Shown here: piece by piece, positions 878 through 26,844 of the stretch
Numbering within the stretch: position 1 is the stretch's first letter
Layout: each line of letters starts with the position of its first letter
Origin: Pseudomonadota bacterium
GTDB lineage: Bacteria > Bdellovibrionota_B > Oligoflexia > Oligoflexales > CAIYRB01
Direction: 5' to 3'
DNA: 60,282 bases
NCBI GenBank assembly: GCA_031416315.1
Contig: JANOTL010000054.1
Location: 1-60,282 of the forward strand
The notes under the pieces: generated by a model
Seen by the model: only the letters and a program-made list of their open reading frames with translations
The model's database searches: none
Told to the model about the DNA's origin: nothing
Translations under genes and position numbers: made by a program

Positions 878-893
878 CGGCGCAGATCTTGCT
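878..893 (+). promoter_or_regulatory. sigma54 -24/-12 promoter
   Basis: CGGCGCAGATCTTGCT: GG-N10-GC with TTGC at -12, 54 nt before the ATG at 947. Confidence 0.7.
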
Positions 894-946
894 TAGCAAG
901 GTCCACGATCGACAGCTTCTCGCGCTTCACCCGACGAGGTCTCCTC

Positions 947-1405
947 ATGAAGAAAAGCCGACGCAAAAAAGCTGAGCCTGCCGCCCCGCACTTCCCGGAC
1001 CGCGATCAGATCTTCGACGATGGGCATCGCACTCATCCCTCGGACGCCGTACAGGAGTTCCTGCGCGCCTGGTCCGGCGACGCGGAGGAGCGTGCCGGAG
1101 GCGACCGCGACCCCAACGTCGACGCCGTGGACGATCTCGCGCGTGTCGGCCGTATCACCGGCGCCAAGCCAGGCGAATCCGGAGTCGACGAGATGCGCTC
1201 CCATCTAGGCAAGGTCATCCTCCACGACGAGGAGATCCCCGACGCGGAGAAGGACGTCACCGAGCGTTTCAGCCCGGAGGATATCCGCCGCATCGCCGTC
1301 GCGCTCAACATCCCCGGCCGCGGCACGATGGGCCGTCACCAGCTGATCCAGGCCATCCGCTCCGCTATGGCGGGTAGCGGCACACCTGGCAGCCCGCACG
1401 CTTAA
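947..1405 (+). CDS. Hypothetical protein with C-terminal Rho-N-like (HeH) motif
   Basis: ATG at 947 after GAGG. The C-terminal IRRIAVALNIPGRGTMGRHQLIQAI resembles the Rho termination factor N-terminal motif. Confidence 0.6.
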   Translation: MKKSRRKKAEPAAPHFPDRDQIFDDGHRTHPSDAVQEFLRAWSGDAEERAGGDRDPNVDAVDDLARVGRITGAKPGESGVDEMRSHLGKVILHDEEIPDAEKDVTERFSPEDIRRIAVALNIPGRGTMGRHQLIQAIRSAMAGSGTPGSPHA

Positions 1406-1429
1406 GATCCTGAATCATTTGGAGATAAT

Positions 1430-2149
1430 ATGTTGAAGTCCGTTCTCGCCCTGAGCCTCGCGACCGCGGCGCTCGCCGCATCCGCCATCGCCGATACCGA
1501 GCCCCGCGGCTTCCCCGTGCTCGTCGACGTCAAAAGCGTGTTCATCCCGAACGGCTTCGACGACAACGACGAGATCCAGCTGCGCATCGAAGGCACGCTT
1601 CCCGACACCTGCCACCGCATCTCGCGCACCGAGACGGCCTACGACGACGCCTCGAAGACCGTGACGATCAAGCAATGGGCCCGCAAGTTCCGCGCGGCCT
1701 GCCTGCAGATCGTCGTGCCGTTCTCCCTCGAGGTCGAGCTCGGGCAGCTGCCGTACGGCGACTTCGTCGTCGCCGCGCAAGGCGCGCCGCCGGAGCCGCT
1801 CCGCGTTGCCGAGGCGACTTCTTCCGGACCGGACGAATACCTCTACGCGCCGGTCGAAACCCTGACGATCACGGGCGACTCCCCCACTACCTTGCAGGTC
1901 ACATTGGACGGACGCTTCGCAAATAGCTGCATGCGCCTGAAGGAAATTCGCGTCATTGACTCCGGAAAAACGATCGAGGTCCTGCCGATTGCCGAGATGG
2001 AGAGCCGCGACGGCTGCGAAGCGGTCGACACGCCCTTCTCGCAAAGCGCGGCCTTGCCGGCCGGCCTGAGCCCGGGCCGCCATCTGCTGCACGTGCGCAG
2101 CCTCAACGGCAAAGCCCTCAATCAGATGTTCGTCATTCAGCCGGGCTGA
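1430..2149 (+). CDS. Secreted hypothetical protein with two Cys-containing beta-rich repeats
   Basis: GGAG RBS and a signal peptide. The two halves share a pattern (IEGTLPDTC / LDGRFANSC). Confidence 0.75.
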   Translation: MLKSVLALSLATAALAASAIADTEPRGFPVLVDVKSVFIPNGFDDNDEIQLRIEGTLPDTCHRISRTETAYDDASKTVTIKQWARKFRAACLQIVVPFSLEVELGQLPYGDFVVAAQGAPPEPLRVAEATSSGPDEYLYAPVETLTITGDSPTTLQVTLDGRFANSCMRLKEIRVIDSGKTIEVLPIAEMESRDGCEAVDTPFSQSAALPAGLSPGRHLLHVRSLNGKALNQMFVIQPG

Positions 2150-2228
2150 GCTCGAAAGCCCACGATTGTACTGCGGTTCGCGGCGGCATTCGGCTCGTCG
2201 AAGACCTGGTTACGTTTAGCGAACGGGC

Positions 2229-2257
2229 TTGCAAATGGGGGGCCGATCCGTTACTTT
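2229..2257 (+). promoter_or_regulatory. sigma70-type promoter of the helicase gene
   Basis: TTGCAA-N17-TACTTT. It implies the true start lies downstream of 2229 (first in-frame candidate is TTG at 2268). Confidence 0.45.
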
Positions 2258-2267
2258 CCGTGATCAT

Positions 2268-4730
2268 TTGTCCTCGAACCGCAAAGCTCCCACTCCCATC
2301 GCCAATCTTTTCCAACGCCTTCAATCCCACTTCCGTGCGGCCCGGCACAAGAAGCTCCTCACGCGACTCGGCCTCGAAACCGGCGATCGCGGCATGCTCC
2401 TGCGCGCCGAGCGCCGGATCGAAGACCGCGGCGTCACGACCATGCTGCATGCCGTGGCGACTGCTCCGCAAAATCCAGAGACCTTGCTCCACCCCGAGCT
2501 GCTCACGAGCTACCGGGACACCCTGGCGGCAGAGACCAACTCGGCGCTGAGCGAGGCCGAGACGGCCGTCAAGGCGCTCATCGATCTCGCTCTAGACCCC
2601 GCGATCGTCCGATGGCAGAGCGGCGGCGAGAGCGCGATGCGCGAGAATCATTTGAAGCTGCCGCCGTCGCTCGAGGCGCCCGACGCCCTCGCGACCGCGA
2701 AGCATCACTACCGCAAGATCCAGGCCGCCACCCAGAAAAAACGCGCCGAGTTCCTCGACGCCCGCCTGAAGAAGCTGGTGCCGGGGACGCGCCTCAACGG
2801 CAAAGAGCTTTCGACCCGATTCATGGAGAAGATGCCGCTTCTGACGAGCGCGATCGAGATCGAGCTCAACGTCGAGGCTTCGCTCTCCGAGGCGCAGACG
2901 ACGCAGCTCATCGACCTTCCCGACGACGCGCTACCGAAGACCGTCGAAAACATGATGGTGAAGGCGCGTCGCTCGCTCGTGGCAAAGCTCTCGGCGCAGC
3001 TCAAGGAGCTCGCGGGCCGCATCCGCACGCTGCCGCACATCGAGCTTCTGACCGACGACGAGATCTCCGCAACGGTCGCGCCCTACTACGGCGGCATGAG
3101 TCGAGACCTGAAGCGCCGCCGCGCCAAAAGCGCCTTCGTCGCCGTCGAGGAAAGCGCCCGCGAGGCGAAGTACCAAGGCGACGTGGCGCGGCTCAACGAG
3201 AAGCGCGACGCTTACGCCGACGTCGCCAGCTATTATCCCGTTGCGCGCGGCCTCAAGCGCAAGCTCGTCCTTTACGTCGGCCCGACGAACAGCGGCAAGA
3301 CCTGGCGCGCCCTGAACGACCTCGCCGCCGCCAGCTCGGGCTCCTACCTCGCCCCCCTCCGCCTCCTCGCGCTCGAAGGCCAGGAGGAGCTGGAGAAACG
3401 CGGCCGACCGACCTCCTTCATCACCGGCGAGGAGCGCGACCTGAAGCCGGGCTCGCATTTCGTCAGCTCGACGATCGAGATGCTGAACGTCGAGCAGGCC
3501 GTCGACGCCGTCGTCATCGACGAGGTGCAGCTGTTGGCCGACGAGCATCGCGGCTGGGCTTGGCTGGCCGCGCTCGTGGGTGCTCCTGCCTCGACCGTGA
3601 TCATGACCGGCTCCCCCGATTGCGTCGACATCGTCAAGGACCTGGCCGCCTACCTCGGCGAAGAGCTCACCATCCACGAATTGACGCGCCACAACGAGCT
3701 GCACGTCGCGCCGGCGCCGATCCGCATGCGGGACATCCGCCCGGGCACCGCGATCGTTTGTTTTTCGCGTCGGGACGTGCAGCGAATCAAGAACACCATC
3801 CTGGAGAACTCGGAGCTGAAGGTCGCCGTCGTCTACGGCAACTTGAGCCCCCAGGTCCGGCGCGAGGAGGCCCGACGCTTCCGCTCCGGAGAGGCGCAGA
3901 TCCTCGTCGCGACCGACGCGATCGCCATGGGCCTCAACCTCCCGATCAGCGAAGTGCTGTTCTACGCCACGGAAAAATTCAACGGCGAAGAGGTCTTGCC
4001 CCTCTCACCCTCGGACATTCGCCAGATCGGCGGCCGCGCCGGTCGTTACGGCTTCGCCCAGTTCGGCGTCGTCAACGCGCTGGACCAGAAGAGCCTCGAC
4101 CGAATCCGCGACGCGCTCGAAGAGACGCCGACGATGCTCGAGCGGCCGTACTACGTCGCGCCCGGGCACAACCACGTGCGCATCATCGGCGAGGTCTTGG
4201 GCACGAGCTCCTTGGAGCGGATCCTCACCTTCTTCGAGCGCGCGATCGAGTTCTCCGACGAGCGCTTCGCCCGCTCGAACATCGACGCTTTGTCCTACTT
4301 GTCGACCTTCGTCGACGAGCGGCTGCCCTTCCTCGACGTGACCGAGCGGCTGACCATCGCGGCGACCCCGGTTTCGATCCGAAGCGAGACCGGCCTACGC
4401 TGGTTCATCGACCGCATGCTGAGCTGTTTCCCCGATCCGGAGGATCCGGACCGGGGAGAGGATGATCTCAACGACCTGTTCCGCGTGGCGTCACGGTTCG
4501 ACCATGACGCGGCGCGCACGCAACTCGAGCTGCGGGACGCGGAAGACTATCTCAAGACGCTCACCGTCTACGCCTGGCTCGCCTTTCGCTATCCGACGGT
4601 CTTCACGCGCATCGAAGAATGCGAGGCGCGCCGAGAAATCGTGAACGGCTTCGTGGAGCGGTCGCTGCGCACGTCCTCGGCAAAAGAGAAGCCACCCCAA
4701 AGGGACCGTGGCGGCCGCAGGCGTCGCTGA
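2268..4730 (+). CDS. SUV3-family SF2 RNA/DNA helicase
   Basis: Motifs GPTNSGKT, YLAPLRLLA, STIEM, IDEVQ...RGWAW, FSRR, ATDAIAMGLNLPI, QIGGRAGRYG. Start codon uncertain. Confidence 0.9.
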   Translation: MSSNRKAPTPIANLFQRLQSHFRAARHKKLLTRLGLETGDRGMLLRAERRIEDRGVTTMLHAVATAPQNPETLLHPELLTSYRDTLAAETNSALSEAETAVKALIDLALDPAIVRWQSGGESAMRENHLKLPPSLEAPDALATAKHHYRKIQAATQKKRAEFLDARLKKLVPGTRLNGKELSTRFMEKMPLLTSAIEIELNVEASLSEAQTTQLIDLPDDALPKTVENMMVKARRSLVAKLSAQLKELAGRIRTLPHIELLTDDEISATVAPYYGGMSRDLKRRRAKSAFVAVEESAREAKYQGDVARLNEKRDAYADVASYYPVARGLKRKLVLYVGPTNSGKTWRALNDLAAASSGSYLAPLRLLALEGQEELEKRGRPTSFITGEERDLKPGSHFVSSTIEMLNVEQAVDAVVIDEVQLLADEHRGWAWLAALVGAPASTVIMTGSPDCVDIVKDLAAYLGEELTIHELTRHNELHVAPAPIRMRDIRPGTAIVCFSRRDVQRIKNTILENSELKVAVVYGNLSPQVRREEARRFRSGEAQILVATDAIAMGLNLPISEVLFYATEKFNGEEVLPLSPSDIRQIGGRAGRYGFAQFGVVNALDQKSLDRIRDALEETPTMLERPYYVAPGHNHVRIIGEVLGTSSLERILTFFERAIEFSDERFARSNIDALSYLSTFVDERLPFLDVTERLTIAATPVSIRSETGLRWFIDRMLSCFPDPEDPDRGEDDLNDLFRVASRFDHDAARTQLELRDAEDYLKTLTVYAWLAFRYPTVFTRIEECEARREIVNGFVERSLRTSSAKEKPPQRDRGGRRRR

Positions 4731-4751
4731 GGTGAGCGCAAGACGCGCGTC

Positions 4752-4856
4752 TCAGTCCTTGTTCTTTTTCTTCTCCTGCTTCTCCTGCTTCTTCTCCTTC
4801 GGGGATTTCAACGGGGCTTTCTTCTCGTTCTTCTTCTGGTCTTGACCCTTCGCCAT
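4752..4856 (-). CDS. Small Lys-rich protein, 34 aa (MAKGQDQKKNEKKAPLKSPKEKKQEKQEKKKNKD), absent from the ORF track
   Basis: AAGGAG RBS 7 nt before the ATG, open frame to TGA, starting 12 nt after the dehydrogenase stop. Confidence 0.75.
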   Translation of the reverse strand: MAKGQDQKKNEKKAPLKSPKEKKQEKQEKKKNKD

Positions 4857-4868
4857 GGCATTGCTCCT

Positions 4869-6038
4869 TCAGTGCATTTGCATGACGATCTTGGTACACC
4901 CGTCCTGCTTTTTTTGGAACATGTCATAGCCCGCCGGCGCGTCGTCCAGGGTCAGCTTGTGACTGATGACGAAGGAGGGGTCGATCGCCCCTTGCTCGAC
5001 CTTTTCCAAGAGGGACCGCATGTACTTCTGCGTGTGGGTCTGGCCCATCCGGAAGTTGAGCCCTTTGTTGAAGCCCATGCCGAAGTTGAACTTGTCGATG
5101 AAGCCGACGTAAACGCCCGGAACCGATACGGTTCCGCCCTTTCGGCAGACCCGGATCGCCTGCCGCAGGGCGTGCGCCCGATCCGGCTGGACCCGCAGGG
5201 CCGCCTTGGCGGAGTCCATCAGCGCGTCCAGCGAGCGCCCGTGGGCCTCCATGCCGACCGCGTCGATGCAGGAGGCAGGACCCTCGCCCCCGGTCGCTTC
5301 CATCAAGTGGTCGTAGACGTCGACCGCCTCGTAGTTGATGACTTCCGCGCCACCTGCCGCCGCGAGCTCGAGGCGCTCCGCGAAGCGGTCGATGGCAAAG
5401 ACGCGGCCCGCTCCGAGCATGAAGGCGCTGCGGATCGCGAATTGCCCGACGGGGCCGGCGCCCCAGACGGCGACGGTATCGCCCGGCTGGATGTCGCAGT
5501 TCTCCGCGGCCATGTAGCCGGTGGGAAAAATGTCTGAGAGGAATAGGACTTTGTCGTCCGAGAGGCTCGCCGGCACCTTGAGAGGGCCGACGTCGGCATA
5601 AGGGACGCGCACGTATTCGGCCTGGCCTCCGGCGTAGCCACCGCACATATGCGTGAAGCCGAAGAGCCCCGAGCAGGCCTGCCCGGTCGCCATCAGCGAC
5701 AAGCTCGGGTTCGGGTTCGAGTTGTCACAGGCCGAGAATTGCTCTTTCTCGCAGAAGTAGCATTTGCCGCAGGCGATGTTGAAGGGCACGACGACGCGAT
5801 CGCCGGCCTTGAGATTCTTGACGCTGCGCCCGACCTCGACGACTTCGCCCATGAACTCGTGACCTAAAATGTCGCCCTTCAGGATCGAGGGCACGCACCC
5901 GCCATAAAGGTGTAGGTCCGAGCCACAGATCGCGGTCGAGCTGACGCGGATGACGGCGTCGCGCGCGTTCAAGATCTGCGGATCGGGGACGGTCTCGACG
6001 CCGACTTTGTTGCGGCCCTGCCAGGTGACGGCTCTCAT
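4869..6038 (-). CDS. Zn-dependent MDR dehydrogenase (formaldehyde dehydrogenase-like, YbdR-type)
   Basis: ICGSDLH, GHEFMG, structural-Zn CGKCYFC...C, SDIFPTG, GAGPVG. Confidence 0.92.
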
Positions 6039-6619
6039 GCGTGGACCTCCTGCGCGGCGCCATTGAGGTGCGCGCGATTTTTCGTTTCTCCGGACTCGAC
6101 ACGTGCGGCGCCCTCGCCGTCTTCCTCGTCGACGAGGATTTTGCCGAGCAGGCTGCGCTCACCGTGGGACTGGCCCTCGACGGTCGGAACTTCGCCAGCC
6201 TCGAGGAAAGCCTTCAACTGCCGGAGCACGAGCCAGTCGTGCTCGCCGTCCTTCGACTCGATGCGCGTTCGCTTGCCGTCGACGGCCGTGCTGAGCCTCA
6301 AGGAAGTCAAGGAGCGCTTGTCGATCGGTGCGCCGCCCAGCTCAAACAGCGTCTCGACCTCTTCTTTGGCTTTATTAACGACGATCGCCCGGTCCTGGCG
6401 CTGCATCGATTTTGCGGCATCGCTCGTATCGCTGCCGAGACGCTGGGCGACGACGCAGTGCCCGGTCAGGCCGCGCCCTAAGAATCCGGCGCCGATGGCG
6501 GCCGAAGCCGCGCGAAGCACGAGGTTCGCGCCTTTACGCCGCCGAAAGACGGGGAGAAGCGACAGGGCGCCCAGGGCCACGGAGATGCCCCGCTCGACGC
6601 TAGAAATGTTCTTTTGCAT
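6035..6619 (-). CDS. DUF2892/YgaP-like membrane domain plus shortened SRPBCC-like domain
   Basis: N-terminal NISSVER...RGLTGHC and C-terminal [28 protein letters not shown]; the stop overlaps the dehydrogenase start (ATGA). Confidence 0.75.
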
Positions 6620-6648
6620 TTCGACCCTCCAATTGGAGCCGAAAGGCT

Positions 6649-6664
6649 TGCATAAGTCGTGCCC
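6649..6664 (-). promoter_or_regulatory. sigma54 promoter for the DUF2892-dehydrogenase-small ORF operon
   Basis: Minus strand GGGCACGACTTATGCA (GG-N10-GC). Confidence 0.7.
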
Positions 6665-6669
6665 GCGCT

Positions 6670-6685
6670 TGGTACGCGTCTTGCT
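6670..6685 (+). promoter_or_regulatory. sigma54 promoter for the hemerythrin gene
   Basis: TGGTACGCGTCTTGCT, near-consensus. Confidence 0.8.
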
Positions 6686-6747
6686 GAATACCGGTCGTTC
6701 CCGTTTCGTATCACTCGTATCACTCTGCACCATCGAGGACGAACATC

Positions 6748-7296
6748 ATGGCCACTGCCACAAAAACCCCCGCTAAAAAAACCGCCCCCAAGAAAACCGT
6801 CGCCAAGAACCCTGATGCCGTCGCGTTCCTCGAATCGCAGCACCGCGAGGTCGAGGCGCTCTTCAAGAAGCTCGAGGACGCCGGCGACGACGCGACCAAG
6901 ACTAAGCTGAGCCTCTTTCAGGAGATCGCGCAAAAACTGGGCGCGCACGCTCAGCTCGAGGAGACGATCCTTTATCCAGAAGGCAAGCCGATCGACCCGG
7001 ACATGACGCTCGAGGCTTACGAGGAGCACGACGTGGTGAAGGCTTTGATCGCGAAGATCGAGGCGACCGATCCGAGCGACGAGACCTTCATGGCGAAGTG
7101 CACGGTGCTGAAGGAAGTCGTCGAGCACCACGTCGAGGAAGAGGAAGAGGCATACTTCCCGGAGCTCGCGAAAAAGCTCGGCAAGGAGCGGATGCAGGAG
7201 CTCGGCGCCGAGCTCGAGGCGGCCTTCGCGGCGCTCGCGTCCGGCGAGGAGGCGCAGAAAAAGCCCGCGTTGAAAGCTGCGTCGAAGCTGCGCTGA
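6748..7296 (+). CDS. Hemerythrin/HHE cation-binding domain protein
   Basis: QHREVEALF, HAQLEETILYP, EAYEEH, HHVEEEE. Lys/Ala/Pro-rich N-terminal tail; GAGG RBS. Confidence 0.9.
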   Translation: MATATKTPAKKTAPKKTVAKNPDAVAFLESQHREVEALFKKLEDAGDDATKTKLSLFQEIAQKLGAHAQLEETILYPEGKPIDPDMTLEAYEEHDVVKALIAKIEATDPSDETFMAKCTVLKEVVEHHVEEEEEAYFPELAKKLGKERMQELGAELEAAFAALASGEEAQKKPALKAASKLR

Positions 7297-7408: not shown

Positions 7409-7415
7409 CTAGGGC

Positions 7416-9899: not shown

Positions 9900-11738
9900 T
9901 CACCGCCTTTTCCCCATCGGCGACGCCAGGCTCGCGACCAGGGCCACTAGCTCGACCGACTCCACCGGCTTCGGCAAATGCGCCTGAAACCCGGCCAACA
10001 TCGCCCGCGTCCGATCCTCCGCCCGCGCGAACGCCGTCAAAGCGATCGCCGGCGTCATCCCGCCGGATGCAGACGAGCGGCTGCGCATGTCGCGCACGAA
10101 CTGGTAGCCGTCCCGATCGGGCATGCCGATGTCGGAGATCACCACGTCCGGTCGCTCCTTCTCCAAGAGCGCGAGCCCTTCGTCGGCGCTGGAGGCTGAG
10201 ACGACCTCGGCCCGATTCCGCGTCAAGAAGAGGCGCAGCAAGTCCCGCGCATCGCTCTCGTCGTCGACGATCAGGACCTTGACGCCTTCGAGGTGCACCG
10301 CGAGCGGCACGGTCTTCGGCTGTGCCGCCGCGCCCGCGGTTGCTAAGGGCAGCGACACGACGAAAGTCGCCCCTCGGCTTTCGCCCGCGCTCTCGACGCG
10401 GACGCTGCCGCCGTGGAGCTCGGTCAGATGATTCACGATCGAAAGGCCGATGCCCAGGCCGCCGAAGCGCCGGGTCACCGAGGAATCCGCCTGACGGAAG
10501 CGCTCGAAGACGTGCGGCAGGAAATCGGGCCGGATGCCGATCCCCGTATCGCGCACCGTGACCGTCGCCTGCGTGCCGTCGCGCTGGAGCAGGACGTCGA
10601 TCCGCCCTCCTTGCGGGGTGAACTTCACCGCGTTCGCCAGGAGGTTCCAGACGACCTGCTGCATGCGGTTCGGATCCCCGGTCACAGGCCCCGCGGTCGG
10701 GTCGAGGGTCTTCCGCACCTCGAGCTTTTTCGCCTCGGCCGACGGCCTGATGCTCGTGATCGCGGCGTCGATGACCTCGACAAGGTCGAGCTCGCGCATG
10801 TCGAGGCGGATCTTCCCCGAGATGATCCGGCTCATGTCCAAGAGGTCTTCGATCAGCTGTGTTTGCGCCCGCGCGTTGCGCCCGATCGCCTCGATCCCGG
10901 CCGCAAGATCCTGCGGCTCGTAGTCGCCCGACGCCAAGATCTGCGACCAGCCCATGATCGCGTTCAAGGGCGTCCGCAGCTCGTGCGACAAGGTCGCGAG
11001 AAACTCGTCCTTCATGAAACTCGTGCGCTCCGCCTCCACGGCCGCGCGCTTCGCGCCCTCGTAGAGACGCGCGTTGTCGATCGCCATCGACGCCTGCGCC
11101 GCGACGCCGACGATCAAGCGCTCCGAGCGCTCGCTGAAGCGCGCGGCCTCGCTGTGCCCGAAGAAGAGACCGCCGATCACCTCGCCCGAGCGCGCGAATA
11201 CGGGCACCGCCAGGTAGCTGCAGACGGGCAAGTGCCCCGAGGGCATCCCGAAATGCGGCCCCATCTTCCCGTAGCGCGGGTCGAGCTTGACGTCGTCGAT
11301 GCGGATCGGCTTCTCGCCGCGGAAGGTCGGACCGAAAAGCTCCGTGGCGCGCGGGTGGCCGAAGCTCTCGAACTTCTCGCGCGGGGCGCCGGAGAGCGTG
11401 TAGAGAAGGAGAGTCTCGTCCTTTTCGTTTTTCACCGTGTAGAAGAACGCCCCAAACTGCGCGCTGCAGAGCTGCGTCGCCCGATCGGTGATCGCCTGCA
11501 GGAGCGTCTGGAAATCGAGGGTCGAGCCGATGATCTTGCCGGTCTCGTTCAAGAGCTCGAGGACGCGCGTCTCGCCTTCGAACTCCTCCGTCTTCAGCTC
11601 AAGCGCCGCCTTGGCCTGCTGCAAGGCCGCCTTGGCCTGCTGCAAGGCCGCCTCGGCCCGCTGCCGCGCGGCCAGGTTGATGGCGGCGGTTTGCGAGGTC
11701 ACAGGCCGCTGCGCCGGGTCTCGTAGATCGTCGCTCAA
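9900..11738 (-). CDS. Hybrid sensor histidine kinase (GAF-HisKA-HATPase-REC)
   Basis: GAF (SYLAVP...GGLFFGH), FLATLSHELRTPL, NAVKFT, DTGIG, GLGIGL, receiver IVDDE...SDIGMP...KP. Confidence 0.95.
   Translation of the reverse strand: MSDDLRDPAQRPVTSQTAAINLAARQRAEAALQQAKAALQQAKAALELKTEEFEGETRVLELLNETGKIIGSTLDFQTLLQAITDRATQLCSAQFGAFFYTVKNEKDETLLLYTLSGAPREKFESFGHPRATELFGPTFRGEKPIRIDDVKLDPRYGKMGPHFGMPSGHLPVCSYLAVPVFARSGEVIGGLFFGHSEAARFSERSERLIVGVAAQASMAIDNARLYEGAKRAAVEAERTSFMKDEFLATLSHELRTPLNAIMGWSQILASGDYEPQDLAAGIEAIGRNARAQTQLIEDLLDMSRIISGKIRLDMRELDLVEVIDAAITSIRPSAEAKKLEVRKTLDPTAGPVTGDPNRMQQVVWNLLANAVKFTPQGGRIDVLLQRDGTQATVTVRDTGIGIRPDFLPHVFERFRQADSSVTRRFGGLGIGLSIVNHLTELHGGSVRVESAGESRGATFVVSLPLATAGAAAQPKTVPLAVHLEGVKVLIVDDESDARDLLRLFLTRNRAEVVSASSADEGLALLEKERPDVVISDIGMPDRDGYQFVRDMRSRSSASGGMTPAIALTAFARAEDRTRAMLAGFQAHLPKPVESVELVALVASLASPMGKRR
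11605..11653. repeat. Perfect in-frame 21-bp tandem repeat (2.3 copies)
   Basis: GCCGCCTTGGCCTGCTGCAAG twice plus a partial copy; encodes AALQQAK twice in the kinase N-terminal coiled coil. Confidence 0.95.
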
Positions 11739-16961: not shown

Positions 16962-17046
16962 GGCCGCCTACCGTATCACGCGCGCAATAGCTCGGCCACC
17001 GCCACGGGAGTCTTCCCGCTCTGTGCGGGCACGGCGAAACACTTTT

Positions 17047-17508
17047 TCATGCTCCACTTTCCGTTTGAAAGTGCGCCTTGCCTTCGTGCACCGCCTTGCC
17101 GTTGAAGATGACGCGATACACGATCGGACAACTCGCCGCGATCATCGCGCTGACGCCGCAGTAGAGAGACTGTGATTTCTCCACCGCATCGATCAACGGC
17201 GCCGCCGCGGCCTCGCCTTCGGCCGTCGCCTCGAAGAGGAGGCTGACCTGCTCGAACACGCGCGGCTGCCCGCGCGTCTGCTCCGCCTCGGCCGTGATCT
17301 TGAGCGAGCCTAGGCTCACTTTGGCTTTCCGCATCAGCCCCGCGACATCCATTCCGGTGCAGCCGCAGATCGCCGCGAGCACCAGCTCCTTCGGCGACGG
17401 CCCGTGGTCGTCGCCGCCGGAAGCGGCGCCGGCGTCCATGACGAGCGCGTGTTGCCGCACGGTGCCGTTGAATTCGTACTTAGATTTCCAGGAGACTTCG
17501 TACTTCAT
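17047..17508 (-). CDS. OsmC/YhfA family protein
   Basis: GGDDHGPSPKELVLAAICGCTGMDV and SQSLYCGV. Confidence 0.88.
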   Translation of the reverse strand: MKYEVSWKSKYEFNGTVRQHALVMDAGAASGGDDHGPSPKELVLAAICGCTGMDVAGLMRKAKVSLGSLKITAEAEQTRGQPRVFEQVSLLFEATAEGEAAAAPLIDAVEKSQSLYCGVSAMIAASCPIVYRVIFNGKAVHEGKAHFQTESGA

Positions 17509-17980
17509 GGGCAGCAGCATAGCCCGGCGCTCTCTCGAGCCGCAAGAGCTTGAGCTTGCGCTCGAGCCCGCCGCCGTAGCCGCCGAGGCCGCCGCCCGTC
17601 GCGACGACGCGGTGGCACGGCACCATGATGCTGACCGGGTTCCTGCCGTTGGCCGAGCCGACGGCGCGCATCGCCTTCGGCTTGCCGATGCGCTGCGCGA
17701 GCTCGGCGTAGGAAATGGTCGCGCCGTAAGGGATCCGCCGCAGCTCCTCCCAAACCCGCCGTTGGAAGGGAGTTCCGACCGAGACCGCCCTCGGCACGCT
17801 GAAATCGCGGCGCTCGCCGGCGAAATATTCCGCGAGCTCCCGCGCCGCGCGCACGAGCATCGGCGTTTCCTCGAACGGCGAGCCCATCGGCCCGAACCAG
17901 ATCCCACTCAGCCCGTCCTCGCAAGCCTCGAGGTAGAGGTCTCCCACCAAAGTTTCCAACTTCATTTGGCTTTTGCGCAT
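17480..17980 (-). CDS. ogt: Methylated-DNA-protein-cysteine S-methyltransferase
   Basis: GTPFQRRVW, RAVGSANGRNP, active-site PCHRV. Confidence 0.95.
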   Translation of the reverse strand: MRKSQMKLETLVGDLYLEACEDGLSGIWFGPMGSPFEETPMLVRAARELAEYFAGERRDFSVPRAVSVGTPFQRRVWEELRRIPYGATISYAELAQRIGKPKAMRAVGSANGRNPVSIMVPCHRVVATGGGLGGYGGGLERKLKLLRLERAPGYAAAHEVRSLLEI

Positions 17981-19350
17981 GCGTCTCTCCAGAGGCAATG
18001 GGTCAGGTAAGCTCGCGCGGCGCGCCATGCCGTCGGGTCATCGCCGGGCTCGGCCAGAACGCGCTGGATGACGAGGTCGTTGGCGGGGAACGCGTCCGGA
18101 TCGCCCAGGCAGCGCATGGCGATCATCGCCGCGGTCCACGGCCCGATGCCCTTGATCGCGCGCAGGGTCGCCGTCGCGCTCGCGAACTCCGCCGGGGTCT
18201 CGAAGTCGACGATGCCGTCGTGATGGGCCTGCGCCAAAGCGCGGATCGCCGCGCCCTTGCTGCGGGTGAGGCCGACTTCCTCGACCGGCGCCGTCGCTAA
18301 GGTCTCTGCCGAGGGAAACGCGTAAACAGGGAGCCCGGCGTCTTCGCCGAGCACGGTCCCGAAACGCTCGACCAGCTTTCTCAGCGAAGTCCGCGCGCCC
18401 TGCGTCGACACCAGCTGGCCCAGGATGATCGACACCGCCGTCTCGAAGGGGTCAAAGGCGCCCGGCACGCGGATGCCCGCGGCCACCGCCGGCAGATCGA
18501 TCGGATTGTGCTCGGTGTCGAAGAGGCTCCGCAGCCGCGAAAGCACCGAGCGCAGGCTGGCCAACGGCACGCCGGCGAACTCGGCCCGCAGAAAATCCTT
18601 CCCGCCGGCAGAAGAGATCATGAACGATCCGAACGATTTTCCGTCTTCCGACGGCAGAAACCGGCGGTACGTACCGTTCTCGACGCGCTCGATGCCGAAG
18701 GTCTCGTGGCGCGCCAGATACGCGATGACGCTCGCCCAGTCGTAAGGAAGGCGGATGGCGAGCTTGAGCACGACGCCCTCGGTCGTCGCCGTTCCGCGGG
18801 CTTTGCGCACCGTCGACGGCGGCAGCCGGTAGCGCTCCTGGAACGCCTCGTTGAATCGCCGCACCGAGTGGAAGCCGGCGGCGAAGCCGATCTCGGTGAT
18901 CGGCAGGCTCGTCTCGGTGACGAGCTGCTTGGCGAAGTGCAATTTTTGCGTGAGCAGGATCTCGACCGGCGACGCGCCCAGGTGCTGGTCGAAAAGCCGC
19001 CTGAGGTGCCGGTCGGTGACGCCCAGGGTCGCGGCCAGGCGCTCGACGCTCAAGGTCTCGGCGCCGCCTTGGATGAGCTTCAGCGCGCGGGAGACGGTGT
19101 TGAGGGTGCCGTCGAGCCATTTTGTGCCGGGCGCCAGGTCGGGGCGGCAACGCAGGCACGGGCGGTAGCCGCGGTTTTCGGCCTCGCTCGGGCTGCGGAA
19201 GATCAGGATGTTTTCTGGCTTCGGCCGCGCCGGGCAGATCGGCCGGCAGTAGATCGTCGTCGTCTTCACGCCGAAATAAAAGCGGCCGTCGTAGCGCCGG
19301 TCCCGGCGTGCGATGATGGTCTTCATGTCTTGTTCGGTTAAGAGATTCAC
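17962..19350 (-). CDS. alkA: AdaA-AlkA fusion (Ada Zn domain, AraC HTH, AlkA 3-methyladenine glycosylase)
   Basis: YCRPICP...RPCLRCRP, AraC HTH (AGFHSVRRFN), GQLVS, HhH IKGIGPWTA, DAFPANDL. Start is GTG 19350 or ATG 19326. Confidence 0.93.
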   Translation of the reverse strand: MNLLTEQDMKTIIARRDRRYDGRFYFGVKTTTIYCRPICPARPKPENILIFRSPSEAENRGYRPCLRCRPDLAPGTKWLDGTLNTVSRALKLIQGGAETLSVERLAATLGVTDRHLRRLFDQHLGASPVEILLTQKLHFAKQLVTETSLPITEIGFAAGFHSVRRFNEAFQERYRLPPSTVRKARGTATTEGVVLKLAIRLPYDWASVIAYLARHETFGIERVENGTYRRFLPSEDGKSFGSFMISSAGGKDFLRAEFAGVPLASLRSVLSRLRSLFDTEHNPIDLPAVAAGIRVPGAFDPFETAVSIILGQLVSTQGARTSLRKLVERFGTVLGEDAGLPVYAFPSAETLATAPVEEVGLTRSKGAAIRALAQAHHDGIVDFETPAEFASATATLRAIKGIGPWTAAMIAMRCLGDPDAFPANDLVIQRVLAEPGDDPTAWRAARAYLTHCLWRDACAKAK

Positions 19351-19386
19351 GGCCTGCCGTACATAGCCCGAGTCGGGCAGAAGATA

Positions 19387-19402
19387 CTGGCGGTTTTCGG
19401 AC
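19387..19402 (-). promoter_or_regulatory. Candidate Ada-binding site in the adaA/arsM divergent spacer
   Basis: Minus strand GTCCGAAAACCGCCAG; loosely resembles the Ada AAAGCGCA box and lies where autoregulation would be expected. Confidence 0.3.
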
Positions 19403-19423
19403 CTAGACGCTAGAAGGACCCTC

Positions 19424-20476
19424 ATGCGCAATGATCTCAAAACCATGGAGCTGGTGAAGGAGTACTACGGCCGCGTCCTGTCGACGTCCGCCGATCTCCA
19501 GACCACCGCCTGCTGCGTCGCCGAGGCCCTCGATCCCCGCATCTCGGCGATCGTGGCACAGGTCCATACCGAGGTGCGCGAGCGCTTCTACGGCTGCGGC
19601 GTGATCGCCCCGGCCGAGCTCGAGGGCCGCACCGTCTTGGATTTGGGTTGTGGCACCGGCCGCGACGTCTTCGTTCTGTCGAAGCTCGTCGGCGAGGAAG
19701 GCCGCGTGATCGGCGTCGACATGACGGCCGAGCAGCTCTCGGTCGCGCGCCGCCATCTCGATTTCCATGCGCAGGCTTTTGGCCACGCCCGGTCCAACGT
19801 CACCTTGCTCGAAGGTCACATCGAAGACCTCGAGAGCCTAGGCATCGCCACCGCCTCCGTCGACCTCGTCGTGTCGAACTGCGTGATCAACCTCTCTCCG
19901 GCGAAGGAACGCGTGTTCCGTGAGGCTCTGCGCGTGCTGAAGCCGGGCGGAGAGCTGCATTTTTCCGACGTCTACGCCGACCGCCGCCTCCCGGCGAGCT
20001 TCGCCGAGGATCCCGTTCTCCTCGGCGAATGTCTGGGCGGCGCGCTCTACGTCGAGGATTTCCGCCGTCTCCTCCTCGCCGCCGGCTGCGCCGATCCGCG
20101 CCGCCTCACCAGCGCGCCCATCGGCATTACCAACGTCGATCTCGCGCGGAAGCTGGGCAACGTCACTTTCGCCTCGATCACGTACCGCGCCTTCAAGCTG
20201 GATCTCGAGGATCGCTGCGAGGACTACGGCCAAGTCGCCTACTATCAAGGCACGATTCCGTCGGCGCCGAACGCCTACCGGCTAGACGATCATCACCTGT
20301 TCGAAGCGCACCGGCCGCTGCCGGTGTGCAGCAACACGGCGGCCATGCTCACCGAGACGCGGCTTGGAGCGCACTTCAAGGTGGTGGGCGATACGTCGCG
20401 GCATTTCGGGCTTTTCGATTGCGGGCCTAAAACGGCGGCTACGACTGCAACTGCGACGGCGGCGGCGTGTTGTTGA
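19424..20476 (+). CDS. arsM: AS3MT/ArsM-type SAM-dependent (arsenite) methyltransferase
   Basis: YYG...LQTTACC, YGCG, LDLGCGTGRD, SNCVINL, GECLGGA, CEDYGQ, C-terminal CC. Confidence 0.8.
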   Translation: MRNDLKTMELVKEYYGRVLSTSADLQTTACCVAEALDPRISAIVAQVHTEVRERFYGCGVIAPAELEGRTVLDLGCGTGRDVFVLSKLVGEEGRVIGVDMTAEQLSVARRHLDFHAQAFGHARSNVTLLEGHIEDLESLGIATASVDLVVSNCVINLSPAKERVFREALRVLKPGGELHFSDVYADRRLPASFAEDPVLLGECLGGALYVEDFRRLLLAAGCADPRRLTSAPIGITNVDLARKLGNVTFASITYRAFKLDLEDRCEDYGQVAYYQGTIPSAPNAYRLDDHHLFEAHRPLPVCSNTAAMLTETRLGAHFKVVGDTSRHFGLFDCGPKTAATTATATAAACC

Positions 20477-20493
20477 GGTCGATTCGGCCAACT

Positions 20494-21291: not shown

Positions 21292-21494
21292 AGCAATAAC
21301 TCCAATGTTCCGGGGACATCCGTCCCCACCCCCCCCGGCGCGATTGACCCCGGTCTATTCTGATGTTATCTCTCCGCCCCAATCCTCCGCCATGGCGCTC
21401 TGCCATGCGCCTCCACTCGCAGATTACATTCAGGCCGTTCATGGCGTCCACGCGACCTCCGTGGCGTCGCTCTTTCATTCGCAAAGGGAGTTCC

Positions 21495-22766: not shown

Positions 22767-23977
22767 ACGTCCTGATCCTGAACTGCGGCTCCTCCTCCCT
22801 GAAATTCCAGGTGATCGACACTGATCTCGCCAAGATCGAAGCCGGCGCGGACCGGCTCCTCGCGAAGGGCGTCTATGAGCGCATCGGCAGCCAAGCGCTC
22901 GTGACCCTCACCGCCGAAGGGCAGCCGGTCGTCAAGGCGGCTCTCGCGCTCCGCGATCACCGCGCCGCAATCGAGCATCTCTGCGGCTGGCTATCCTGGA
23001 AGATCGACGGCGTCGGGCATCGCGTCGTGCACGGCGGGGAAAATTTCAAGACCTCCCAACTGATCACGCCCGAGGTCGTGCGCGGCATCGAAGACTGCAT
23101 CGACCTTGCGCCGCTCCACAATCCGGCGAACCTCCAAGGCATCCGCGCCGCCAGCGAGATCTTCGGACCTGAGGTGCCCCAAGTCGCCGTCTTCGACACC
23201 GCCTTCCACGCGGAGATGCCCGAAACCGCCTTTCTCTACGCGATCCCGTACCAGCTCTACCGCCGCTACAAGATCCGGCGTTACGGCTTTCACGGCACTT
23301 CGCACCGCTACGTCGCGTATCGCTATCGTCAGCTCACGGGCAAGGCGAAGGAGGACGTGAAGATCATCACGCTCCACCTCGGGAACGGCTGCTCGGCGTG
23401 CGCCATCAAAGGCGGGCGCTCCGTCGACACCTCGATGGGCATGACGCCGCTCGAAGGCCTGACGATGGGGACGCGCTCCGGCGACCTCGATCCGGCCATC
23501 CTCGAGTACCTGGCGCACAAGGAAGGGCTGAGCTTCGACCAGCTCGATACGCTTCTCAACAAGCAATCGGGTCTGCTCGGGATCTCTGGCCTGACCAACG
23601 ACATGCGCGAGCTCCTCGACGAGGAGCGGGAAAACCACGACCGCCGCGCCACGCTCGCGATCGAGATCTTCTGCCATCGCATCCGCAAGTACGTCGGCGC
23701 TTATTTCGCCGAGCTCGGCGGCGCGGATGCTCTCGTCTTCACCGGCGGCATCGGCGAGAACGCGCCCCAAATCCGAGCCCGCGTCTGCCAAGGCCTGGAA
23801 GCGATGGGCATCTTCCTGGACGCGGGACTCAACGCAAAGACCGTCGGCACCGAGGCGCGAATCTCTCAAAATGGCGCCGGGACTGCGGTTTTCGCGATCC
23901 CGACGAACGAGGAGCTCCTGATCGCCCGCGACACGGTGCGTGCCGTCAGTGCGCCGGCGGCGGCGGCGTATCCGTGA
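22763..23977 (+). CDS. ackA: Acetate kinase
   Basis: [58 protein letters not shown] overlap with the GT4 stop. Confidence 0.96.
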
Positions 23978-24191
23978 TGTTTTCCTGAAACTCCTCGGGA
24001 CTGCACTTCAGATGCACTCCGTCGTCGTCCGCCGACTCGACCCAGTCGAGCGGGAACCAATGGTGGCGGCTGTCATCGGAATCGTTGCGCTTCAGCTTGA
24101 CCCACTGATTGCCTTCCATGTGGTCGACGGTGCCCACGTGCACGCCGGCGGCGTGGACGTGCATATCTGGCTTGATCATCTCCGTGTTCAT
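23946..24191 (-). CDS. DUF2171 family small protein
   Basis: [12 protein letters not shown]...KLKRNDS...[16 protein letters not shown]. Confidence 0.8.
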
Positions 24192-24230
24192 TGGCTTCTC
24201 CCGATAAAGTTGGCTTGACCGTCCCACTCC

Positions 24231-24246
24231 AGCAAGATGCGCGCCG
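24231..24246 (-). promoter_or_regulatory. sigma54 promoter for the DUF2171 gene
   Basis: Minus strand CGGCGCGCATCTTGCT. Confidence 0.72.
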
Positions 24247-24285
24247 ATTTTTGCATAAGGGCGGACAACCTGAGAAGGAGCGACC

Positions 24286-24801
24286 ATGCCGAACACGAGA
24301 AAATTGTCAGACGACGCGAGCAAGATCTTCGACCTCTTAGACAGCGCCAAGCTGGGGATGTTGGTCACCGGCGGCGAGTCTGGCGCGCCCCTGCGCAGCC
24401 GCCCCATGTCCTTCGTCGAGGTCAGCCGCGACGACATGGTGGTGAGGATGTTCAGCACCGCCGATTCCCCCAAGGAAGATGAGCTGGAGAAGGACGCCCG
24501 AGCCAACATCAGCGTCATGGACCCGGCGAGCCAGAACTTCGTCTCACTTTCCGGCCTGATCGCGGTCCGCAACGATCCGGAGCTGAAGATGCGGCTCTGG
24601 AAGCCGATCCACCTCGCCTGGTATCCGAGCGGACCGACGGACGCGGACCTGCACGTGCTCGAGTTCAAGATCGCCGGCGGCGACTTCTGGGATGCGCCCT
24701 CGAGCCGCATCGTCCAGTTCGTCGGAATTGCCAAAGCCATCCTCACCCGTGAGACTTACACGGGCGGGACGGTTGGCCACATGGGCGTGCTGCACGTCTG
24801 A
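24286..24801 (+). CDS. General stress protein 26-like / pyridoxamine 5'-phosphate oxidase-like FMN-binding protein
   Basis: LRSRPMS, FVSLSG, LWKP...AWYPSGP, FWDAPSS; AAGGAG RBS. Confidence 0.85.
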   Translation: MPNTRKLSDDASKIFDLLDSAKLGMLVTGGESGAPLRSRPMSFVEVSRDDMVVRMFSTADSPKEDELEKDARANISVMDPASQNFVSLSGLIAVRNDPELKMRLWKPIHLAWYPSGPTDADLHVLEFKIAGGDFWDAPSSRIVQFVGIAKAILTRETYTGGTVGHMGVLHV

Positions 24802-24897
24802 TTCAGAAGGCGTAGCCGACGCCCAAGTCGAAGGTGGTACCCTACGCCACCATCGCCAAACGCCTGGACCGTCACGGCGACCTTTGGGAGCCCGTGA

Positions 24898-25770
24898 TCA
24901 ACCTGCCGTCGTATCGCCGCCCAGAAGCGTCAAAACCTCGCCGGTGATGTAGCTCGAGTCGGAGTTGGCGGCGAGAAACACGAAGGCCGGCGCGATCTCC
25001 TCGGGTTGCGCCGGGCGCCCGTACCTCGTCTTCGCGCCGAAACGCGCCACTTCCTCCGGGTCGCGGTCCGCGGGGTTGAGCGGTGTCCACACCGGTCCGG
25101 GCGCGACGCAGTTGACGCGGATGCCGCGTTTGACCAGGTTTTTCGCTAGAGACTTGGTGAAGGCGTGGATCGCGCCTTTGGTCGCGGAGTAGTCGAGGAG
25201 TCCTTCGCTGCCCTCGAGGCCCGTGATCGAGCCGGTGTTGATGATGGCGCCCCCGCGGCCGATCACGGCGAGCGCGGCCTTGGCCATATAGAAATAGCCG
25301 TAGATGTTGGTCTTGAACGTCAAATCCCACTCTTCGTCGCCCAGCTCCTCGATCGAATCGTGATGCTGCTGGTAGGCGGCGTTGTTCACCAGCACGTCGA
25401 GCCTGCCGAACTTCTTGACGACGCGCTCGACCGCCTTTTTGCAGAAGGCAGGATCGCGGACGTCGCCCGGGATCTTCTCGCAACGCCGGCCTTCGGCCTC
25501 GACCGCCTGTACCGTTTCGTCGGCGTCGGATTCCTCCGCCTTCAGATACACGATCGCGACATCGGCGCCTTCGCGCGCATACAAGACGGCGACGGCGCGT
25601 CCGATCCCGGAGTCGCCCCCCGTGATCAACGCCACACGGCCTTCCAGCTTCGCGGCGCCGCGGTAGTCGGGGGCCTCATATTGAGGTCTTGGCCTCAGTT
25701 TCGACTCAAGGCCGGGCTTGGTGAGCTTTTGCGCTGGAAATGGCGGCTTCGGTTTGGCCTTCGCGGACAT
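24898..25770 (-). CDS. SDR oxidoreductase (YghA/YdaD general stress protein 39 type)
   Basis: TGGDSGIG, NNAAYQ, YSATK, APGPVWTP, GRPAQPEE. Confidence 0.93.
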   Translation of the reverse strand: MSAKAKPKPPFPAQKLTKPGLESKLRPRPQYEAPDYRGAAKLEGRVALITGGDSGIGRAVAVLYAREGADVAIVYLKAEESDADETVQAVEAEGRRCEKIPGDVRDPAFCKKAVERVVKKFGRLDVLVNNAAYQQHHDSIEELGDEEWDLTFKTNIYGYFYMAKAALAVIGRGGAIINTGSITGLEGSEGLLDYSATKGAIHAFTKSLAKNLVKRGIRVNCVAPGPVWTPLNPADRDPEEVARFGAKTRYGRPAQPEEIAPAFVFLAANSDSSYITGEVLTLLGGDTTAG

Positions 25771-25798
25771 GTGACGTCTCTCCCATCGTCAATTCAGG

Positions 25799-25814
25799 TG
25801 GCGTATCCCTTGCA
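25799..25814 (+). promoter_or_regulatory. sigma54 promoter for the gene at 25853
   Basis: TGGCGTATCCCTTGCA. Confidence 0.75.
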
Positions 25815-25826
25815 ATGCCCACGCCG
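25811..25826 (-). promoter_or_regulatory. sigma54 promoter for the SDR gene
   Basis: Minus strand CGGCGTGGGCATTGCA; shares TGCA with the opposite promoter. Confidence 0.7.
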
Positions 25827-25852
25827 TTCCCCCGTTCCACGAGGAGATCCCC

Positions 25853-26320
25853 ATGTATTGGTCGAAAGCCTGGGAAATCGGCGCCGGGAGCGTCGCCTTG
25901 CGCGGAAGCATCCCTCATCCGCAACGGGCGATTGTCGAGCACGATGCGTGGACGATCCGCCGCCCGATCGAGGACGTGCACGACGCCTGCTGCGACGCCT
26001 CGATCTGGGAGCGCATCGGTACGGGCTTGCCGGCACTCGTGCCGGTGCTCACGAACGAGGCTGGCGGCATCGTCTGGCGCTCGCCGCCGCACGCATCGCC
26101 CTCGATCGAGGTCCGCCTGCGGCTGGAGCGCGGCCGCGACGAGCGGGAGACGCGCCTCTTCGCCTCCGTCATCTACGAGCCCGCGGACGGCCTTTTCCAC
26201 GCGCTGGCCAGCCGCGCGAGCAGCCCCCTCGTCGCGCAGCGCATTCATGAGGCGCTCCGTCAGCTGAAGCAGCTGATCGAGAGCGGCCAGATCGCCACCG
26301 GCGAGAGAGTCGAGAAATAA
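25853..26320 (+). CDS. Divergent SRPBCC (START-fold)-like protein
   Basis: GAGGAG RBS; TIRRPIEDV at the start and LRQLKQLIESGQIAT at the end, as in stress-associated cyclase/dehydrase proteins. Confidence 0.6.
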   Translation: MYWSKAWEIGAGSVALRGSIPHPQRAIVEHDAWTIRRPIEDVHDACCDASIWERIGTGLPALVPVLTNEAGGIVWRSPPHASPSIEVRLRLERGRDERETRLFASVIYEPADGLFHALASRASSPLVAQRIHEALRQLKQLIESGQIATGERVEK

Positions 26321-26362
26321 AGGCTCTCGTCGGGCACCGAAACAAGACATCCGCGTCGATCG

Positions 26363-26761
26363 TCAGAGCTCCAACCTAGACGCGGCGAAATCGTCGTCGG
26401 TCAGTACGGTATCGACATTCAGGACATTGATCTGATTGACGACGTCATCGACGCCGAGGCATGCCTCGACGGCGGACTGTGCCGCATCTTTCTGGAGACT
26501 CGTCTCGACGAAGCCCAGGAGGGTCACCGAGGCGCCCTTGACGTGGACCTGGATGTTCGTCGCATCGACTTCAGCCTTCCGGAACAGGGCCTTACAGACC
26601 TCGTCCTTGAGGCGCTCTTCAGGGCGCATGCCGCTGCGGCCTTCGTCGCCGGTGAAGGTCCATCCGTGCTCTCCAAACCGACGCTCGCCGCTACTGCCCT
26701 GACCGAAATAACCACCACCCTGCTGCGGAAAGCGACCGCCTTGGTTCGATCGTTCGGTCAT
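26363..26761 (-). CDS. BON domain protein
   Basis: EERLKDEVC...VDATNIQVHVKGASVTLLGFV...GVDDVVNQI. Confidence 0.85.
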   Translation of the reverse strand: MTERSNQGGRFPQQGGGYFGQGSSGERRFGEHGWTFTGDEGRSGMRPEERLKDEVCKALFRKAEVDATNIQVHVKGASVTLLGFVETSLQKDAAQSAVEACLGVDDVVNQINVLNVDTVLTDDDFAASRLEL

Positions 26762-26792
26762 GGTACACCCCCTGCGTGAACGCGCCTGGGAA

Positions 26793-26808
26793 TGCAAGGT
26801 GCGATCCA
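26793..26808 (-). promoter_or_regulatory. sigma54 promoter for the BON gene
   Basis: Minus strand TGGATCGCACCTTGCA. Confidence 0.68.
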
Positions 26809-26828
26809 TGTGTCCCCTTTCTCACGTA

Positions 26829-26844
26829 CGGTACGGAGCTTGCT
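26829..26844 (+). promoter_or_regulatory. sigma54 promoter for the YihY gene
   Basis: CGGTACGGAGCTTGCT. Confidence 0.75.

Follow-up and report, generated by a model that had tools for sequence, protein, structure and literature searches.

The analysis presented here points, on balance, to a bacterium of the Oligoflexales that transcribes its classic general-stress genes with the sigma-54 polymerase and in which no RpoS, SigB or NepR was found; these genes would form one arm of a larger regulon, predicted to comprise about 240 promoters. The subject is a stretch of 60,282 nt (the window; contig JANOTL010000054.1 of assembly GCA_031416315.1) that carries eight predicted sigma-54 promoters of the -24/-12 type. 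CsbD, OsmY/BON and YghA proteins are targets of known general stress responses, and sigma-54 polymerase forms a closed complex that has to be opened by an AAA+ enhancer-binding protein. Since sigma-54-type promoters precede such survival genes and no RpoS, SigB or PhyR-NepR-EcfG system was detected, switching by sigma-54 and an ATP-driven activator, in place of a dedicated stress sigma factor, is likely. Below, G000 is the genome holding the window (6.36 Mb, 65% GC, 226 contigs, 93% complete; 5571 genes called with a purpose-built gene model), C-numbers are its contigs, other G-numbers are further genomes, and L-numbers are fetched loci.

An earlier note on this DNA had listed eight GG-N10-GC elements close to start codons with Shine-Dalgarno sequences. 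All eight are present in the window (Table 1), on the coding strand and with exactly 10 nt between GG and GC; the -12 C lies 30-63 nt from the start codon, and every start codon has a purine-rich Shine-Dalgarno-like run. Six of the eight promoters form divergent pairs across intergenic gaps of 82-128 nt. The 25800+ and 25825- promoters (window 25797-25828) overlap face to face, one TTGCAA palindrome (25810-25815) serving as the -12 of both, and with this geometry the pair could not be occupied in both directions simultaneously. With a matrix trained on contigs other than the window's own, only these 8 of the 36 window genes with an intergenic upstream region exceed 9.5 bits, compared to 259 of 3355 in the genome (binomial p 0.005), the threshold having been chosen post hoc to take in the weakest window site. 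The eight are confined to the first 28 kb (8 of 17 genes, versus 0 of 19 beyond). Judged from sequence, the elements are very probably functional sigma-54 promoters.

The literal pattern alone is weak: the window has 22 matches and the genome 2525, as coincidence might produce for so short a consensus where the DNA is GC-rich. It was therefore tested genome-wide. YGGY-N7-TTGCW occurs 15-90 nt upstream of 107 of 3337 genes, whereas six other spacings give 8-11. Dinucleotide shuffles leave the literal motif before 60 +/- 6 genes, compared to 203 of 3337 in the actual sequence, where it peaks on the sense strand 30-60 nt upstream of genes. A matrix trained without the window's contig has the consensus YGGCACG-N4-TTGCW and scores above 11 bits in 268 of 3577 upstream regions and 32 of 3523 shuffled ones. 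The number of predicted sigma-54 promoters in G000 is about 240 (243 after filtering), and their distance to the start codon is 26-81 nt (10th-90th percentile). The comparison with chance that the earlier note had proposed therefore came out in its favor; the spacing and shuffle controls, the 8/17 versus 0/19 split within the window and conservation in orthologues refute coincidence, which retains next to no probability.

G000 encodes a single rpoN (C153:102138-103616). A 13.5-bit sigma-54 site lies 67 nt upstream of it, and rpoN autoregulation is possible from this sequence. Eleven proteins match the sigma-70 family: RpoD, FliA, an RpoH-like factor truncated by a contig end, and eight of the size of extracytoplasmic function (ECF) factors, seven of which were scanned. 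As to whether rpoS, sigB and ecfG are absent, which the earlier note had left to be checked, RpoS (TIGR02394), SigB (TIGR02980) and NepR gave no match over cut-off in G000 (93% complete, with the eight ECF-sized factors untyped), in its relatives or in the Blastocatellia genomes tried. Neither the EcfG nor the SigB promoter motif shows enrichment before genes, with 0-4 occurrences among 3337 whatever the spacing; the RpoS motif is indistinguishable from that of RpoD. A single-contig Blastocatellia genome has RpoD alone among group 1-3 sigma matches, yet has a canonical sigma-54 site before CsbD.

The enrichment before stress families suggested by the earlier note is borne out. Eight of nine CsbD, DUF1328, BON and YghA-type genes of G000 have a site, directly or via an operon leader, versus 416 of 5469 genes, a test that is less biased than the marker test described below in that the genes were taken from family searches of G000. 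The classic target genes therefore share one promoter type (8/9); ferritin-family and otsA genes mostly do not. Nearly every stress gene has such a promoter, yet most of the promoters precede other genes. The note's claim of a sigma-54 stress regulon holds in that stress genes have sigma-54-type promoters, but the motif does not mark a stress regulon as such, being found at about 240 promoters that include at least one other arm with its own palindrome.

The content of the regulon is mixed. Of the 243 promoters, 142 were annotated, picked since they clustered in 60 fetched regions. No Pfam family was assigned to 63 of these 142 site-bearing genes, and narrow stress markers account for nine (DUF1328, DUF2171, CsbD, BON, PRC, hemerythrin twice, DUF2383 and Transgly_assoc). 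CBS or USP proteins are encoded by ten, of which nine lie on C94/C95. Many are of secreted type, including DUF4360 (five), DUF1036 (two), CAP (two), proteases and lipases. Targets with signal peptides also include trypsin, GDSL, C13, C14, M48 and SLT proteins, and these are possibly a secretome arm for predation or starvation; a motif search found no enhancer at secretome-type promoters. The CBS/USP class has its own palindrome, ttGCGcGAtaTCgCGCaa (TTGCGC-N6-GCGCAA), adjoining activator C94 (score 72 by expectation maximization, EM, versus 35-40 in the null), which the window promoters lack. The regulon therefore has at least two arms. CBS/USP genes behind sigma-54 sites are dense at C94:31000-53000, around activator C94:44568-46118, and on C95 (L082, L084, L086, L089), a block that looks like a low-oxygen arm akin to NmpR with a different box. 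For the 26 stress-type promoters, neither dyad and k-mer counts nor palindromic EM (two null runs per setting) gave a shared enhancer above null; the same EM did recover the CBS/USP palindrome. Sites for IHF are not enriched. A further operon, at C55:16367-21482 (L104), lies behind an 18.8-bit site and encodes OmpA-like, CsbD-like and ferritin-like proteins, followed by PrkA and DUF444 genes.

The motif is conserved upstream of orthologues in relatives, as the earlier note had anticipated. Counting sites above 10 bits, with the antisense strand as control, and with G000's own loci included for the first two families, a site is present at 10 of 20 CsbD loci (antisense 2) and 13 of 22 DUF1328 loci (antisense 3) in the order. 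Among relatives only, it is present at 12 of 28 DUF2171 loci (antisense 2) and before five of six YihY homologues in the order (antisense 0). Beyond the order, promoter type goes with lineage for hemerythrin, and the pattern is repeated for CsbD. Of 80 hemerythrin homologues, 79 loci were usable (one was too short). In Acidobacteria a canonical sigma-54 site precedes 17 of 21 (0-1 at other spacings), whereas in Alphaproteobacteria the sigma-54 site precedes none of 32 and the EcfG motif, taken as given in the text available of PMC6599016, precedes 15 of 32. In the cross-phylum survey of CsbD, in which 30 of 43 matches had loci, the sigma-54 site was found in Acidobacteria (11/11) and Binatia (2/3) but not in Alphaproteobacteria (0/5).

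Sigma-54 promoters need an activator, and G000 has 18 full activator domains, one of them duplicated, leaving 17 distinct sigma-54 activators, all with intact loop-1 motifs of the GAFTGA type. The duplicated copy lies on C126:1-18684 (L126), a contig that is an inverted duplicate of itself with the activator and its neighbors present twice; this is probably an assembly artefact. Two divergent activators (C138:180385-181866 and C159:8212-9777) have an unusual C-terminal helix-turn-helix and a long branch of their own. The leading candidate is a GlrR-like clade with three members in G000 (C129:12494-13918, C55:713-2098 and the receiver-less C68:6810-7808). The clade comprises 19 rows, the three G000 proteins and 16 from relatives, with an SH-aLRT support of 99 from a quick tree. 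Its members have a GlrR-like helix-turn-helix and the layout receiver, AAA+, helix-turn-helix; loop 1 reads G[AS]FTDA, with the central FT kept, and GlrR is the best NCBIfam match of C55. Clade genes lie within 21 kb of CsbD or DUF1328 genes in 8 of 26 cases, versus 0 of 48 for other activators, and they co-occur with CsbD/DUF1328 in 15 of 20 genomes versus 5 of 21. Their neighbors (67, picked by hand) include ferritin-like, BON, hemerythrin and KGG proteins as well as hybrid kinases, single receivers and seven stand-alone Hpt proteins. A hybrid kinase of the CHASE-PAS type and an Hpt protein form a pair divergent from C129.

Alignment of orthologous promoters gave TGTAG-N8-CTACA as a candidate enhancer. 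In relatives, of 52 sigma-54 promoters next to clade genes, 15 carry TGT-N12-ACA where 2.3 would be expected; other spacings give 1-4, and site-less regions 9 of 208. When an enhancer matrix built only from relatives is applied to G000, the C68 promoter comes out on top, and candidate sites are also found before C55 and C129, the scores upstream of the three genes being 13.9, 12.3 and 5.4 bits. Loss of the receiver has affected the syntenic clade activator of G003 (L359, C28) and of G010 (L360, C296), the latter also having a stop, and these two, alone in the family, have no matches to CsbD and DUF1328. CsbD/DUF1328 suggested that the sites go when the clade is lost, but DUF2171 and a site before the G012 csbD operon contradict this. 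Outside the order, profile A1 did not find the clade in 33 genomes, with at most 49 candidates scored in each (best 470 bits). In one Polyangiaceae genome (G043 C207, L307) DUF1328, CsbD and an activator with the loop GAFTDA lie in a row.

These observations suggest a pathway in which stress or starvation signals would act on hybrid kinases, which would pass phosphate through a stand-alone Hpt protein to the GlrR-like clade activator. Once phosphorylated, the activator would bind TGT-N12-ACA and drive some or all of the stress arm, the BON promoter included. For the remaining seven window promoters, the activator may be the same clade without a recognizable enhancer or another of the 17. That the clade is the main activator of the window's promoters is a tentative proposal, with somewhat less than an even chance of being right. 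Co-induction of the genes as a general stress or starvation response is likely. The GAF hybrid kinase at 9900-11738 had been proposed by the earlier note as a candidate upstream sensor, a suggestion for which no support was found: its gene has no sigma-54 site (2.2 bits), no full-length orthologue was found in 40 relatives, and it is one of nine similar kinases in G000.

Several results weigh against a sigma-54 general stress response under this clade. The motif is not stress-specific, stress-type genes being a minority of the 142 annotated. At equal E-value, marker families occur in 7 of the 142 site-bearing genes and in none of 148 site-less ones of these regions (p 0.006), which favors the stress reading, but the marker list was picked after the matches were known, and p-values are overstated because the genomes are related, many being close kin. 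Ku, DUF892 and OtsA have no match in G000. No clear site was found before bacterioferritin, the Dps genes of G020, G025 and G060, both otsA genes, acidobacterial BON genes, one G000 CsbD gene or the Myxococcaceae-type CsbD genes (0/3). The candidate enhancer lies near only one of the eight window promoters (BON), is not enriched at stress-type promoters of G000 (3 of 26 versus 24 of 500 in the background), and is found at none of 17 DUF2171/YihY promoters in relatives. Sites before DUF2171 are kept in three genomes in which no clade member was found (G002, G012 and G027), and the largest genome-wide site excess is in G002. Finally, one of the eight untyped ECF factors could serve the stress genes.

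Some of these results would fit a different role, in which this lineage, poor in sigma factors, uses sigma-54 as its general alternative factor in a programme of growth arrest or prey search with several activators. Secreted enzymes, lipoproteins, motility and stress proteins would be expressed jointly, the stress genes being passengers without a dedicated multi-stress switch. The sheer number of promoters (about 240), signal-peptide-like starts at 99 of 243 targets versus 883 of 2904 (by a crude rule), the sigma-54 site of rpoN itself, the separate palindrome of the CBS/USP block, the lack of a shared enhancer in the stress class, and the large site excess in a genome without the clade are all consistent with it. 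Such a programme does not account for one activator clade being linked to stress markers by synteny and co-occurrence, for the joint loss of the receiver and of CsbD and DUF1328 matches in G003 and G010, or for the use of EcfG stress-sigma promoters by the same targets in Alphaproteobacteria, and we consider it unlikely, though the strongest competitor to a stress response. An improbable variant keeps the stress response and makes it a two-tier amplifier: phosphorylated C129 and C55 would switch on the receiver-less C68 by way of its enhancer and sigma-54 promoter, and C68, once abundant, would open many enhancer-less promoters from solution. The sigma-54 site of C68 scores 14.7 bits, no sigma-54 promoter of G000 has a better enhancer score, and the Walker A/B and GAFTDA motifs of the protein are intact. 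Its receiver-less orthologue in G001 is identical at 238 of 315 residues, with many silent changes, and the divergent window pairs leave 82-128 nt between genes. The truncated activator DctD250 can act without an enhancer, as described in the part of PMC3844500 available. Against the amplifier, the G001 orthologue was not found to have a sigma-54 site in front of it, what looks like one in G013 falls inside coding sequence, C68 retains its helix-turn-helix, and most relatives' clade members retain the receiver.

It is very unlikely that sigma-54 mainly holds these sites closed, or represses overlapping sigma-70 promoters, while another sigma factor transcribes the genes. Sigma-70 and sigma-54 promoters that overlap are known at glmY (in the available text of PMC3045617), and the mutual exclusion at the face-to-face 25800/25825 pair would suit repression. 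The tight distance to start codons (26-81 nt) and the sense-strand bias, the conservation across families and phyla, and the 17 activators with intact loop-1 motifs argue against such a role. Transcription of the stress genes by sigma-54 polymerase, as an arm of a larger regulon, is the preferred reading.

The remaining window genes are listed in Table 1. The gene labels of the earlier note stood for the hemerythrin, DUF2171, BON, YihY/BrkB, YgaP/DUF2892, Zn-dehydrogenase and SDR proteins, whereas the Rho-N match is below cut-off and the SRPBCC-like protein has no Pfam match. Genes for a family-B DNA polymerase, OsmC, a methylguanine methyltransferase and Ada/AlkA (14637-19425) lie between the stress blocks without a sigma-54 site. 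A Suv3-type helicase is encoded at 2394-4730; a literal GG-N10-GC match at 2244, on the strand opposite to it, is aimed at 2149, and there is no gene that way. With 62-64% GC versus 65% for the genome, the stress blocks do not stand out as islands.

Table 1. Promoter elements, candidate enhancer and genes of the window.
Feature	Position	Strand	Details
sigma-54 -24/-12 element	878..893	+	first G 879; 15.2 bits; -12 C to start codon 54 nt
sigma-54 element	6649..6664	-	first G 6663; 9.6 bits, weakest of eight; -12 C to start 30 nt
sigma-54 element	6670..6685	+	first G 6671; 18.3 bits; -12 C to start 63 nt; back to back with 6649..6664
sigma-54 element	24231..24246	-	first G 24245; 13.0 bits; -12 C to start 40 nt
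sigma-54 element	25799..25814	+	first G 25800; 13.3 bits; -12 C to start 39 nt
sigma-54 element	25811..25826	-	first G 25825; 10.5 bits; -12 C to start 41 nt
sigma-54 element	26793..26808	-	first G 26807; 14.9 bits; -12 C to start 32 nt
sigma-54 element	26829..26844	+	first G 26830; 15.6 bits; -12 C to start 41 nt
degenerate element, doubtful	24238..24257	+	GC replaces GG at -24; 4.1 bits; precedes YdaG-like gene
candidate enhancer, TGT-N12-ACA type	26877..26894		one mismatch; 11.6 bits; 84 nt upstream of BON promoter; spans yihY start
152-aa protein	947..1405	+	C-terminal Rho_N-like match below Pfam cut-off (E 6.5e-4)
34-aa Lys-rich small open reading frame	4752..4856	-	likely last in 6649 operon; no family
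Zn-dependent dehydrogenase	4869..6038	-	ADH_N/ADH_zinc_N; 4-nt overlap with upstream gene
YgaP/DUF2892 membrane protein	6035..6619	-	Pfam
hemerythrin-domain protein	6748..7296	+	Pfam
GAF-HisKA-HATPase-REC hybrid kinase	9900..11738	-	Pfam
DUF2171 protein	23946..24191	-	Pfam
YdaG/general stress protein 26-like	24286..24801	+	Pyrid_ox_like; Pfam
SDR	24898..25770	-	above NF005214 (PRK06701) cut-off; Pfam and NCBIfam; presumably YghA/YdaD type
155-aa protein	25853..26320	+	SRPBCC-like as a lead only; no Pfam match; atlas score 0.90
BON-domain (OsmY-type) protein	26363..26761	-	Pfam
YihY/BrkB membrane protein	26885..27787	+	Pfam

The known general stress responses run by RpoS, SigB or EcfG resemble the system described here in their targets and in their upstream control. 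General stress protein 26, PRC-barrel and Zn-dehydrogenase proteins are in the EcfG table of PMC6599016, and the available text of the same source describes an upstream phosphorelay with a phosphotransferase and single receivers. The differences are that no RpoS, SigB, NepR, Ku, DUF892 or OtsA was found in G000 and that its promoters are of the -24/-12 type, because of which its output would need an AAA+ activator and ATP. EcfG also served for an independent test, which was underpowered: 23 flagged alphaproteobacterial open reading frames led to only three G000 genes, two of them hemerythrins.

Among sigma-54 systems, Nla28S/Nla28 of Myxococcus xanthus differs in its CT(C/G)CG(C/G)AG direct repeat, which is not enriched in G000 (2 of 26 versus 45 of 1200), and in its targets, which the part of bioRxiv 10.1101/2021.11.28.470282 available gives as developmental, regulatory and defence genes; Myxococcaceae-type CsbD genes are without sigma-54 sites. 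The NmpRSTU oxygen regulon of M. xanthus, as far as described in the accessible text of PMC11841059, is similar in combining sigma-54, CBS/USP/hemerythrin genes and a phosphorelay, and resembles the C94/C95 block. The NmpR box GCGCA-N5-TGCGC from that text is not enriched in G000 (1 of 26 stress-type and 0 of 17 CBS/USP promoters, 45 of 1200 in the background). A further likeness is to GlrK/GlrR (QseE/QseF) of enterobacteria. The candidate enhancer TGT-N12-ACA fits the TGTC-N10-GACA of GlrR in the portion of PMC3045617 available. The three G000 copies score 376.6, 355.3 and 310 bits, far below the NF011695 cut-off of 763, and the clade differs in loop 1 (G[AS]FTDA), in its Hpt and hybrid kinase partners, and in having protein genes rather than glmY as targets. 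The rpoN2 gene of Ralstonia solanacearum is, like rpoN of G000, preceded by a sigma-54 site; in the available text of PMC4371752 it is a second copy, induced in minimal medium and with no known phenotype, whereas G000 has one rpoN, and the word stress is absent from that text.

No description of the RpoS/SigB/EcfG gene set under sigma-54 was found in the literature searched, subscription journals and supplementary regulon tables being outside the search. In the parts available, neither Bdellovibrio nor Acidobacteria is named in the main text of PMC12316311 or of PMC3162934. The components are each known, and it is their connection, this gene set wired to sigma-54, that was not met with in the literature searched. 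The analysis adds an account of how large the regulon is across the genome and how mixed its content is, the swap of promoter type between lineages, and the link of an enhancer to an activator clade, with its limits.

Taken further, the results may describe a fourth general-stress architecture in bacteria without RpoS, SigB or EcfG, in the Oligoflexales, Blastocatellia, probably Binatia and others, in which survival genes are placed on sigma-54 under a phosphorelay-controlled AAA+ activator. We put this forward as a proposal with a little under an even chance of being correct. In Oligoflexales the controlling module would be hybrid kinase, Hpt and GlrR-like activator with TGT-N12-ACA. Other phyla would use a different activator, and the wiring would thus have arisen more than once.

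The question of how a general stress response is organized without RpoS, SigB or EcfG concerns many abundant soil and water lineages. If the proposal is true, the promoter type is identified together with a candidate activator and the enhancer and phosphorelay that go with it, and it would provide a rule for reading stress regulons in Acidobacteria. A protein of Pseudobacteriovorax antillogorgiicola is 53% identical to the clade activator, and homologues of one activator were also named Oligoflexus sp. and Oligoflexales bacterium. P. antillogorgiicola is a cultured relative that carries the activator, and the idea is therefore directly testable. Control of this kind would be an ATP-gated, leak-free switch, with a logic unlike that of sigma-factor competition.

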